A DNA stretch of 64,000 nt. Source: Chloroflexota bacterium. GTDB lineage: Bacteria; Chloroflexota; UBA11872; VXNJ01. A program made the translations under genes and the position numbers. Positions 50,288 through 51,935 of this stretch are shown one piece after another (position 1 is the first letter of the stretch; each line of letters starts with the position of its first letter). The stretch spans positions 1,984,001-2,048,000 of the forward strand of contig OZ253449.1 of the NCBI GenBank assembly GCA_965261345.1, in the 5' to 3' direction. The notes under the pieces are model-generated. The model searched no databases. It worked only from the letters and a program-made list of their open reading frames with translations, and was not told the origin of the DNA.

Positions 50288-50288
<1 letters not shown>
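48921..50288 (-). CDS. pabB: Chorismate-binding enzyme, aminodeoxychorismate synthase component I-like
   Basis: GDVYQVN, SPEL, RPIKGTR, KDRAENVMIVD, PGGSVTGAPK, GGGIVADS. Confidence 0.85.
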
Positions 50289-50361
<73 letters not shown>

Positions 50362-50435
50362 GTGAGGGTTGTTAGGGAGGTTCAAGCATACTAATTTGAG
50401 CCGCCGGACCACCGGCGTTAGGGATTTGAAGGGCT

Positions 50436-50443
50436 AATGCAAT
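50436..50443 (+). repeat. 8-bp target-site duplication AATGCAAT (left copy)
   Basis: Identical to 51928-51935; abuts the TIR. Confidence 0.88.
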
Positions 50444-50462
50444 GGGGCTTATATACCTAACT
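50444..50462 (+). repeat. Terminal inverted repeat, tnpB 3' side
   Basis: GGGGCTTATATACCTAACT. Confidence 0.88.
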
Positions 50463-50486
50463 AGCACAAGGCCCGTCGGCATACAT

Positions 50487-51634
50487 TTACGCCGCCTCGC
50501 CGGCGGCCGCGGGCATAACCCCGCCCGCGAGAGCCTTCTGAAGGATGTTTAAGGCCGCGTTGTGATCGCGGTCGATATCCAGACCGCATTCACATACGTG
50601 CCTTCTCACCTCCAGGCTCTTTCTGACCATCGCACCGCAACTGCTGCAGCGCTGCGAGGTGTTTCTGGGGTTGACGAATACCAGCTCCCTACCGGCGCTC
50701 TCGGCCTTGTAGAGAAGCTGACTGATGATCCGTCCCCAGCTTTGTTCCAATATGGCGCGGTTCAGTCCGCGCTTTCTGGCCCCGCCCGATCTGGTCATGG
50801 CCTTTTTGTCCAGCTTCTCCACGGCTATATATCCGTAGCACCGGATCAAATCGGTCGTTATCCGATGGCACTGGTTCCTGTCCCTGATCCGGGCCCGCTC
50901 ATGCGCGTTGGCCAGGATGCGACGGCGCTGCCGGAAGCGGCGGCTGCCCTTCTTGCATGCCGACAGGCGCCGCTGCTTGCCGACTATCTCGGCGCGGTCC
51001 ACCTGGCGGCGCTCGATCTTTCGACCCTCACTGGTGGTGATGCGGGCCATAACTCCCATGTCCAGGCCGACCTTGGCCGGGTCATATGGCAACGGCTCCA
51101 TCTCAACCGCGTAGGCCCGGTTCACGGCTATGCGCCGTCCCCGGAAGGCAATACGGATCGTCTTCAGGTCTTCTGAAGGCGGCAGCGCTCGCCCGGTCCG
51201 GATCTTAATCGCCGGCAACCCTTTTACACGGACTGCGTAACCGCGCCCGTCGGGTCTGACCATCGCGGGCGTAGTTTGTTCCAGCTGGATCGTGCGGTAG
51301 CGATGATGCGGCTTATAGCGCGGGAATCCTGGTTTCTCACCGTTCTTACAGCGGCGGTAAAAGGCCTGCTTGGTGCTTTCGGCGCGAGTGAGCGCACCGC
51401 GCCGATATCGACCGACAGGGTCCCCCAGAACGGGTCCTGGCTGCGGGTACGAGTGAACGCCTTCATGCGGTCGAACAGTGAATCGCTATTGCCGCATTCT
51501 TTGTAGGACCGGCGCCATTCTTCCAGTTCGGCGTTGTACAGCTCGGCGCATCCGGAGAGCACCTGGTTGAGCCGATCGCAGCCGCGGCGGCTCAGGAAGC
51601 CGCGCCGCTGGAAGGTGCGGTAGGTGGTCGGCAT
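50487..51634 (-). pseudogene. tnpB: TnpB RNA-guided endonuclease with one frameshift near 51402 (about 382 aa if repaired)
   Basis: N-terminal YRTFQRR..LYNAELEE; joined frame QAFYRRCKNGEKPGFPRYK; RuvC VGLDMG, IAVEKL, DRDHNAALNI; Zn finger TSQRCSSC..CECG. Confidence 0.9.
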
Positions 51635-51908
51635 TTGCCGGTGTTCTATATATATGGGTTCTATTTTTAAGGCCTTAAGTATATATGGTATGTTCGATAT
51701 ACTGTTTGCGCCCATGCGTTCGTTGATATCGTCGGGCGGGCGAGCAAGCAAGACGGCACACCGCCCTCCTCTATGGAAGGCCCTTTACGATCTCGGCGTC
51801 AATTTCCGCTGGTAGTGGGTCTGGTCGATCGGTGGCTGCGATTCGGCGCCGACAATCATGCGTGTGTGAAACCGGCGGGGTTCATTAAGATTCAGTCGGG
51901 TTGGATCA

Positions 51909-51927
51909 AGTTAGGTATATAAGCGCC
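51909..51927 (-). repeat. Terminal inverted repeat, tnpB 5' side
   Basis: AGTTAGGTATATAAGCGCC on the + strand. Confidence 0.88.
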
Positions 51928-51935
51928 AATGCAAT
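51928..51935 (+). repeat. 8-bp target-site duplication AATGCAAT (right copy; contains start ATG 51929)
   Basis: Identical to 50436-50443. Confidence 0.88.

Follow-up and report, generated by a model that had tools for sequence, protein, structure and literature searches.

A tnpB-only, IS1595-type transposon of a Chloroflexota genus and its predicted guide RNA at the right end

ISDra2, an IS200/IS605-type element of Deinococcus radiodurans, encodes the nuclease TnpB (PDB 8h1j, 8exa), whose guide-RNA (omega-RNA) scaffold overlaps the 3′ end of tnpB and terminates at the element's right end, and whose guide comes from flanking DNA and matches the empty site. In passages of PMC10097598, nt −6 to −2 of this RNA are paired with nt −102 to −106, and this guide-adjacent pseudoknot is stated to be conserved in all Cas12 guide RNAs. 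Here we describe a 1,484-bp element with tnpB as its sole gene, located at 50444–51927 on the minus strand of a 64,000-nt stretch of a Chloroflexota genome (contig OZ253449.1; below, the window, meaning this whole stretch), together with its relatives in the same genus. We consider it probable from comparative evidence that the intact relatives are tnpB-only IS1595-type transposons whose guide RNA spans the right end and could target their own empty site. Their nuclease is homologous to that of ISDra2 over its full length; predicted here are a scaffold reaching from the 3′ part of tnpB to the right end of the element, a guide-adjacent pseudoknot and a flank-derived guide matching the empty site. 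The two systems differ in their ends, as ISDra2 has subterminal hairpins and no duplication, whereas the window family has inverted repeats and an 8-bp duplication. Moreover, the window family is without a Y1 TnpA in five genomes, its predicted guide would begin with duplicated target bases, its candidate motif is a single G and not TTGAT, and resealing of the donor site at excision is not known for it.

TnpB genes within DDE-type transposons have been described before. In passages of Altae-Tran et al. 2023 (PMC10691335), six DDE-associated TnpB branches (DDE-1 to DDE-6) have inverted terminal repeats, the TnpB 3′ end lies ≤250 bp from the transposon end, solo TnpBs occur between the same ends, and related guide mechanisms are inferred by the authors. 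The window family shares with them the position of TnpB between inverted repeats, the closeness of its 3′ end to the transposon end and the common ends of transposase-less and transposase-bearing copies. Of the transposon families, the main text in those passages names IS630 only and IS1595 not once; RNA structure, pairing of a pseudoknot with the repeat and a flank motif are absent from the same passages. A 2026 review (PMC13565253) lists, in the relevant part, ISL2, IS630 and IS1031 and calls the TnpB–DDE association rare in prokaryotes, and a search for literature on TnpB together with IS1595 gave nothing on such elements by title or abstract. As far as the cited passages go, the window family adds an IS1595 type to the known DDE-associated TnpB elements, TnpB guides in inverted-repeat DDE transposons being already in print (PMC10691335), and the pairing of a loop with the terminal repeat and the one-sided G|A junction described below occur in none of them.

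Fanzor1 (SpuFz1), as presented in passages of PMC10432273, is likewise a nuclease gene between conserved inverted repeats, where the scaffold occupies the right end and the guide lies downstream of it. The Fanzor1 proteins are eukaryotic, larger, found in other transposon superfamilies and experimentally shown, whereas the RNA of the window family is deduced from sequence; according to a passage of the 2026 review (PMC13565253), the left duplication supplies part of the Fanzor motif. With IS1595 insertion sequences carrying passenger genes, such as the element of the same genome described below (L046; transposase plus three open reading frames, ORFs), the window element has the end type and the 8-bp duplication in common; it differs in lacking a transposase, in having an RNA-guided nuclease as cargo and in the functional differentiation of its two ends.

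The element, its family and its relatives

The whole element was delimited by the inverted repeat and the 8-bp target-site duplication at both ends and by the uninterrupted site in relatives. The right-end repeat (tnpB 3′ side) lies at 50444–50462, where the minus strand ends ...TATATAAGCCCC, and the left-end repeat (tnpB 5′ side), identified by repeat and end-pattern matches, lies at 51909–51927, also on the minus strand; the arms 50438–50462 and 51909–51933 comprise 25 nt and are 92% complementary. The inverted repeats measure 19–25 bp. The right copy of the duplication (50436–50443) reads AATGCAAT on the plus and ATTGCATT on the minus strand, and the left copy (51928–51935; AATGCAAT) holds the ATG of an ADP-ribosylglycohydrolase gene. 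Between the tnpB stop and the element end there are 43 nt (50444–50486). An earlier note on this DNA had described this spacing, the repeats and the duplication, all of which are present, and had reconstructed an empty site. The latter fits five congeneric genomes, in which tRNA-Cys (50288–50361, minus strand, in the window, where it is the neighbour outside the right end) is the immediate upstream neighbour of the same ADP-ribosylglycohydrolase gene and no element separates the two. Because of these five genomes, the window element is to be read as a simple insertion and its empty-site reconstruction as sound; no record skipping the element was found in the contigs of four DNA runs. The insertion duplicated the start-codon region of the ADP-ribosylglycohydrolase gene, whose upstream sequence is now the left end of the element.

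To place the element in a transposon family, the window's genome (2.39 Mb) was scanned with the terminal repeat. This gave a second element of 2,448 bp outside the window (L004:1501-3948, corresponding to 2210000–2212447 of the genome) with near-identical ends and an 8-bp duplication, AATGCAAC. Its 335-AA transposase matches DDE_Tnp_IS1595 (2.7e-35) and Zn_ribbon_IS1595 (1.1e-09), and it carries three passenger ORFs (108, 160 and 174 AA) without a Pfam match. No IS1595 transposase was found inside 50444–51927 by ORF and Pfam analysis, while two copies are present elsewhere in the genome. A Y1 TnpA (PF01797) was absent from the window's genome and four relatives, with 6 of 14 control genomes positive. 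Since near-identical ends bound an element with an IS1595 transposase and no Y1 TnpA was found, the window element is, as judged from its ends, a transposase-less, non-autonomous derivative of an IS1595-type transposon and not a full IS1595 member. In three complete genomes no tnpB copy was located near a transposase gene, and the IS1595 transposase is far more widespread than this tnpB, occurring in 29 of 401 genomes of the phylum.

In G100, two identical IS1595-type ends (L047 and L051) lie 13.6 kb apart in facing orientation; their duplications (AATGCATC, GATGCATC) are palindromic and nearly match, and the two ends may belong to a large composite or cargo-laden element. All elements of transposase type in the genus are located in ATGCA-containing 8-mers, like the window element. 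An unrelated repeat with six copies in the window's genome, outside the window (161262, 239597, 1036819, 1600278, 1640188 and 2060737), was picked up by a one-mismatch match to the end pattern; its copies are identical over the 100 nt shown, and it is probably another multi-copy insertion sequence.

For comparison we used 22 distinct copies, namely the window copy plus 21 that come from four further genomes of the genus, most with an intact ORF of 382–383 AA. Close protein relatives, with 64–80% identity to the window's C-terminal frame in tblastn, were found in this genus only, and a query with an intact relative returned 5 of 401 phylum genomes at E <= 1e-60, one of them a 45%-identical outlier belonging to another family. 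In all 22 copies the stop codon lies 38–48 nt before a conserved terminus (...TATATAAGYCCC and variants) and the terminal 12 nt of the right end are kept, with complete divergence beyond. Individual genomes carry 6–8 copies at separate sites, where the duplications are fresh, and the guide region differs from copy to copy. Two metagenome-assembled genomes (MAGs), G001 and G002, contain 7 and 8 tnpB cassettes, respectively, of which most have an intact ORF and several are flanked by exact duplications. A metagenome scan gave 80 loci, all just 32–45% identical, and no family ends among the 53 examined; a 10-nt repeat seed in 13 of the 53 was chance-like. Inverted repeats are likewise lacking at the TnpB of G047 (45% identical). 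As neither these metagenome loci nor the G047 TnpB have the family ends, the repeat-bounded form appears, within this sampling, to be found in this genus only.

Both ends were available for 17 copies; left ends were not found for L040 and L045, that of L044 is truncated and that of L030 is cut by the end of a contig. The left and right ends of the 17 differ consistently at positions 3, 5 and 9, and their 8-bp duplications are exact in nine, have one mismatch in three and do not match in five, which is perhaps due to recombination between copies. Those five (L020, L022, L033, L038 and L042) have intact ends and flanks with 2–6 mismatches, a pattern that recombination or flank replacement could explain; the flanks of L033 fit if the boundary is moved by one base (a 9-bp duplication). 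The copy L006 (L006:3960, G001 contig C23) has its left end at L152:1501, about 3.5 kb upstream of the tnpB match, so that the element extends over some 4.5 kb with the duplication ACATATAA vs. ATATATAA; something has probably been inserted inside it.

A structured RNA and its pairing with the element end

The earlier note had drawn attention to two GC hairpins over the last tnpB codons, and these recur throughout the family. When the alignment of the 22 copies (A1) was folded with RNAalifold, both were recovered along with an upstream multi-stem domain. Hairpin 1 (50508–50529, minus strand; CGCGGGC/GCCCGCG with an 8-nt loop and a conserved stem of 6 bp) lies in the last tnpB codons and is 99.2% paired, with pairs 184/203 and 185/202 changed on both sides in 6 and 4 copies, respectively. 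Hairpin 2 (50491–50507, minus strand; GCCGCC/GGCGGC, 5-nt loop) is 100% paired and three of its pairs change on both sides. The two hairpins are thus 99–100% paired over the 22 copies with compensatory changes at five pairs, in variants such as GCGGG/CCCGC, TCGGG/CCCGA, CTGGG/CCCAG and GGGGG/CCCCC, and these changes alter the encoded residues. The 5′ multi-stem domain (50530–50620, minus strand; alignment columns 89–182) is inside the tnpB coding sequence; pairing in its closing helix reaches 87.7%, and at pair 91/180 ten copies have GC and nine have AU.

A third hairpin is located between the stop codon and the terminal repeat (50461–50480, minus strand, in the window). RNAalifold missed it because three subfamilies misalign, and each copy was therefore folded separately. 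Three unrelated sequence versions of it, with folding energies of −7.0 to −14.8 kcal/mol, account for 19 of the 22 copies, and many of its pairs are G-U, possible only in an RNA of tnpB sense; the window copy is different, degenerate and weak here (−5.9). A 197-nt RNA spanning 50424–50620 (minus strand) folds at −92.1 kcal/mol (z = −5.24), and none of 200 shuffles was as good. The full 53-pair structure (columns 89–275) is 87.4% paired vs. 84.1% in shuffles, with none of 500 reaching this value, and 15 of its pairs change on both sides. A long-range pairing of columns 13–16 with 240–243 was set aside as invariant and uninformative. Synonymous-site entropy along tnpB is lowest in the last 20 codons (0.57 vs. 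0.8–1.3 mid-gene) and is also low at the N-terminus (0.61), giving weak support to an overlapping structure. No terminator-like site was seen on the minus strand before the element end, and a scan of the element against Rfam 15 at E up to 10 returned just a tRNA and two chance matches, with no family for the predicted RNA. At the level of the family, these results support a structured RNA that would overlap the 3′ end of tnpB and reach the right end of the element.

How far this RNA extends is suggested by the loop of hairpin 1. In the window, this loop (GGGGUUA, 50516–50522, minus strand) can pair as the 5′ strand of a pseudoknot with the last 7 nt of the element (AAGCCCC, 50444–50450, minus strand), which stand directly 5′ of the predicted guide; six of seven pairs are present, joining 50522–50517 with 50444–50449. 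Among the copies, loop versions such as GGGACUU, GGGGCUU, GGAGUU and GGGAUUU complement ends that read AAGUCCC, AAGCCCC, AACUCC and AAAUCCC, respectively, in their last 6–7 nt. Of the pseudoknot cells over the 22 copies 89.6% are paired, vs. 64% and 68% when the strands are slid by one column, and a comparison of 243 windows of 7 nt ranks the loop first as partner of the terminal 7 nt in 18 of 22 copies and second in the remaining four. Hairpins 1 and 2 together with the pseudoknot are 95.9% paired vs. 89.6% in shuffles (none of 500 reaching it) and about 50% when slid, with compensatory change at eight pairs. On a tree built without the pseudoknot columns at least four independent compensatory switches (L010 vs. 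L008; L044 vs. L040/L042; L025; L019) and three G-U intermediates can be placed.

The left inverted repeat does not track these changes, which argues against a plain co-evolution of transposase sites. Because tolerance of G-U lets most purine/pyrimidine combinations pair, we regard the pseudoknot between the hairpin 1 loop and the element end as probable rather than proven. Given the complementarity of the loop to the end of the right repeat, the RNA most likely extends as far as the last base of the element, its guide being read from the right duplication and the flank. This is what the earlier note had proposed for the window copy; for the family, the complementarity that follows sequence change supports the proposal, and for any present activity of this particular copy it finds no support.

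The predicted guide, the flanking base and what they may mean

With a scaffold ending at 50444, the predicted guide would comprise the right duplication as its first 8 nt and 12 nt of flank (50424–50443, minus strand), a length of 20 nt being assumed. With up to 4 mismatches allowed, the reverse complement of 50424–50443 has a single match in the 2.39-Mb genome. We then examined the bases next to the duplications, read in the orientation of tnpB. At −1, immediately 5′ of the left duplication (51936 in the window, where the minus strand has G), the base is G in 15 of the 17 copies with both ends (binomial 4e-6 at a flank G frequency of 0.33) and in six of seven further left ends, making 21/24, and the first duplicated base is A in 13/17. 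The base after the right duplication is unbiased (A6, C5, G3, T3). Of 11 extra rows given by the end pattern, five were counted as family left ends (L152, L171, L168, L162 and L149); L163 (left-end-like, with G), L145 (a right or transposase-type end, with T) and four chance-like rows were set aside. For comparison, 31 transposase-bearing loci were examined, of which six have clean ends and perfect duplications; with both orientations counted (12 ends), G is found in 1/12, C in 7/12 and A as first base in 2/12. In Fisher tests of TnpB-element against transposase-bearing ends, G differed at 6e-6 and A as first base at 0.0025.

The G before the left duplication looks like a candidate target-adjacent motif. 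As the right end terminates in C in all 22 copies, the target-adjacent position would be G in empty and C in filled sites. The earlier note had argued that the filled site is distinguished at this position, and over the family this is the case, with the terminal C of the repeat in place of G. The same note had pointed to TTGAT, the ISDra2 motif, at the window junction (TATTG|ATTGCATT). This pentamer is absent from the other 16 junctions (CATAG|ATAAATTC and GATCG|AATCGTAG among them) and is put down to chance; the check for a conserved motif beside the duplications, which the note had suggested, pointed to G at −1 as a candidate and not to TTGAT.

From the anatomy, family assignment, conservation, compensatory pairing and flank bias observed above we infer an RNA, its use as a guide, cleavage and homing. 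The scaffold would consist of about the last 140 nt of tnpB and the 38–48 nt after the stop, including the right inverted repeat, and would be closed by the pseudoknot of the first 3′ hairpin's loop with the last 6–7 nt of the element. Transcription past the element end would append the right duplication and flank as a guide that matches only the unoccupied version of the same site, where G precedes the target, and not the occupied one, where the terminal C of the repeat does. TnpB could then cut empty alleles, and repair from the filled copy would restore or spread the element, the jumping itself being done by a DDE transposase encoded elsewhere.

A bolder extension, which we offer tentatively and hold to be possible though doubtful, is that TnpB is a homing drive for a DDE-type inverted-repeat transposon, in which the repeat end has a dual role (transposase substrate and pseudoknot strand), a single base discriminates empty from filled sites, and the G|A junction is a footprint of retention. 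On this proposal the transposase would insert more freely, and just the insertions with the right neighbouring base would persist, leaving the 21/24 footprint. We prefer to read the G bias in this way, as a mark of retention or selection by TnpB, over an asymmetric preference of the transposase that moves the cassettes.

Several observations weigh against a guide RNA with such a function. Five of the 17 duplications are non-matching. The inner helix of the 5′ domain (columns 96–102) is poorly kept, at 53.9% paired. For the pseudoknot alone, 13 of 500 column shuffles equal its pairing and 12 of 500 its covariation, a moderate result; its most variable pair is GC in 8, AU in 7, GU in 3 and unpaired in 4 copies, and three lineages (L034; L017; L006 with L018) have mismatches in it. 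No IS1595 transposase or DDE domain was found in the assembled contigs of the MAGs G001 and G002, which are 90% and 80% complete. The transposase-bearing comparison set is small, with six elements from other genera whose transposases are about 50–60% identical, so that a different, asymmetric preference of the transposase may also explain the bias. With a single base, the candidate motif is also much shorter than that of ISDra2 (TTGAT). The window copy itself has neither an intact tnpB reading frame nor an intact hairpin 3. Finally, a passage of the 2026 review (PMC13565253) points out that DDE cut-and-paste excision already leaves a break, so that the benefit of TnpB is unclear.

In the strongest alternative, the conserved 3′ structures are real, yet they are not a guide RNA and instead serve as mRNA-stabilising or translation-control hairpins or as DNA sites of the transposase, with the G reflecting an orientation-specific target preference of the latter. 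Hairpin 3 is mirrored by a left-end hairpin in one subfamily and could be a DNA-level feature of the ends, the pseudoknot covariation is only moderate, and the MAG contigs yielded no cognate transposase for their copies. Against this, the G-U-rich pairing is possible only in RNA of tnpB sense, the loop follows the right end and not the left, the architecture is like the guide-adjacent pseudoknot of a solved TnpB RNA (in the passages of PMC10097598), and the transposase-bearing relatives have C, not G, on both sides. We therefore regard this explanation as unlikely and retain a guide RNA spanning the right end as the better account of the family.

The tnpB gene, the window copy and the significance of the family

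The family profile aligns over its full length with the ISDra2 TnpB structures 8h1j and 8bf8/8exa (about 2e-37), and the RuvC catalytic residues D192, E273, D355 and D357 are invariant in 18 intact copies. In the window, tnpB is split between two frames on the minus strand. The N-terminal part (51401–51634, start ATG at 51634) aligns with residues 1–78 of an intact relative, after which the frame is lost, and the C-terminal part (50487–51401) aligns in another frame with residues 79–382 and includes RuvC, the zinc finger and the stop (50487–50489). Pfam matches of the latter are OrfB_IS605 (8.4e-11) and Cas12f1-like_TNB (2.9e-23), and the four catalytic residues are present. Together the two frames are complete, and because they align consecutively with no residue missing, the gene is broken by a single-base frameshift at about 51400–51401 (minus strand), a position indicated by the frame alignments and by sister-strain contigs. 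The same frameshift is present in contigs of the window's own organism (X1), which possibly derive from the window's source sample and so are not independent. In a sister strain from another study, the element occupies the same site with one extra base behind 51400. It has an 11-nt deletion in tnpB at 50679 (50679–50689), a 2-nt insertion at 51654 and two right-repeat substitutions (50447 and 50462), the first of which turns a pseudoknot G-C into G-U. The window and sister-strain lineages carry different lesions and are decaying independently.

Because of the frameshift, the broken hairpin 3 and the independent lesions in the sister strain, the window copy is, by its sequence, a fossil that is no longer functional. 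It could be objected that it is still an active homing system that would work once expressed, as the catalytic motifs and the zinc finger are intact in the C-terminal frame, and both hairpin 1 and hairpin 2 are present, as are six of the seven pairs of the pseudoknot. This is very unlikely and largely refuted, given the frameshift after residue 78, the loss of hairpin 3, the 11-nt deletion at the same site in the sister strain, which indicates relaxed selection, and the presence of just one full copy in the genome. Besides this full copy, the window's genome has a heavily degraded tnpB 3′ remnant (L003:1501-2115) with a right-end-like terminus and a solo left end (L005:2094-2250) that is 79% identical to the 5′ 155 bp of the window element and is among the few left ends with C, not G, before the duplication.

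It is just as improbable that TnpB is a domesticated RNA-guided regulator between old transposon ends. Many TnpB lineages are immobile according to passages of PMC10691335, and the single genomic match of the guide adjoins a tRNA and a gene start; yet the catalytic residues are invariant, the 6–8 copies per genome sit at different sites with fresh duplications and with a guide region that differs at each, and decay of the window copy is seen in two strains. An ordinary IS200/IS605-type tnpB-only element with an incidental inverted repeat, in agreement with the Pfam family (IS605 OrfB), can practically be dismissed and is refuted by the structure of the ends, as the 25-nt inverted repeat and 8-bp duplication recur at independent sites, the ends are common with an IS1595 transposase element, no Y1 transposase was found in five genomes, and distant relatives (32–45% identity) have no such repeats.

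Although the window copy itself is an ordinary dead insertion, its genus offers a natural test bed, with 6–8 intact, recently moved copies per genome, a defined scaffold, scaffold-end pairing and a candidate one-base motif. A motif this short would also be of interest for engineering compact editors. Why RNA-guided nucleases are rare in bacterial DDE transposons, and what role they have there, is named as an open point in a passage of the 2026 review (PMC13565253). Should the flank bias prove to be a footprint of retention, genomes would provide direct evidence for a contribution of TnpB to the persistence of a DDE transposon.

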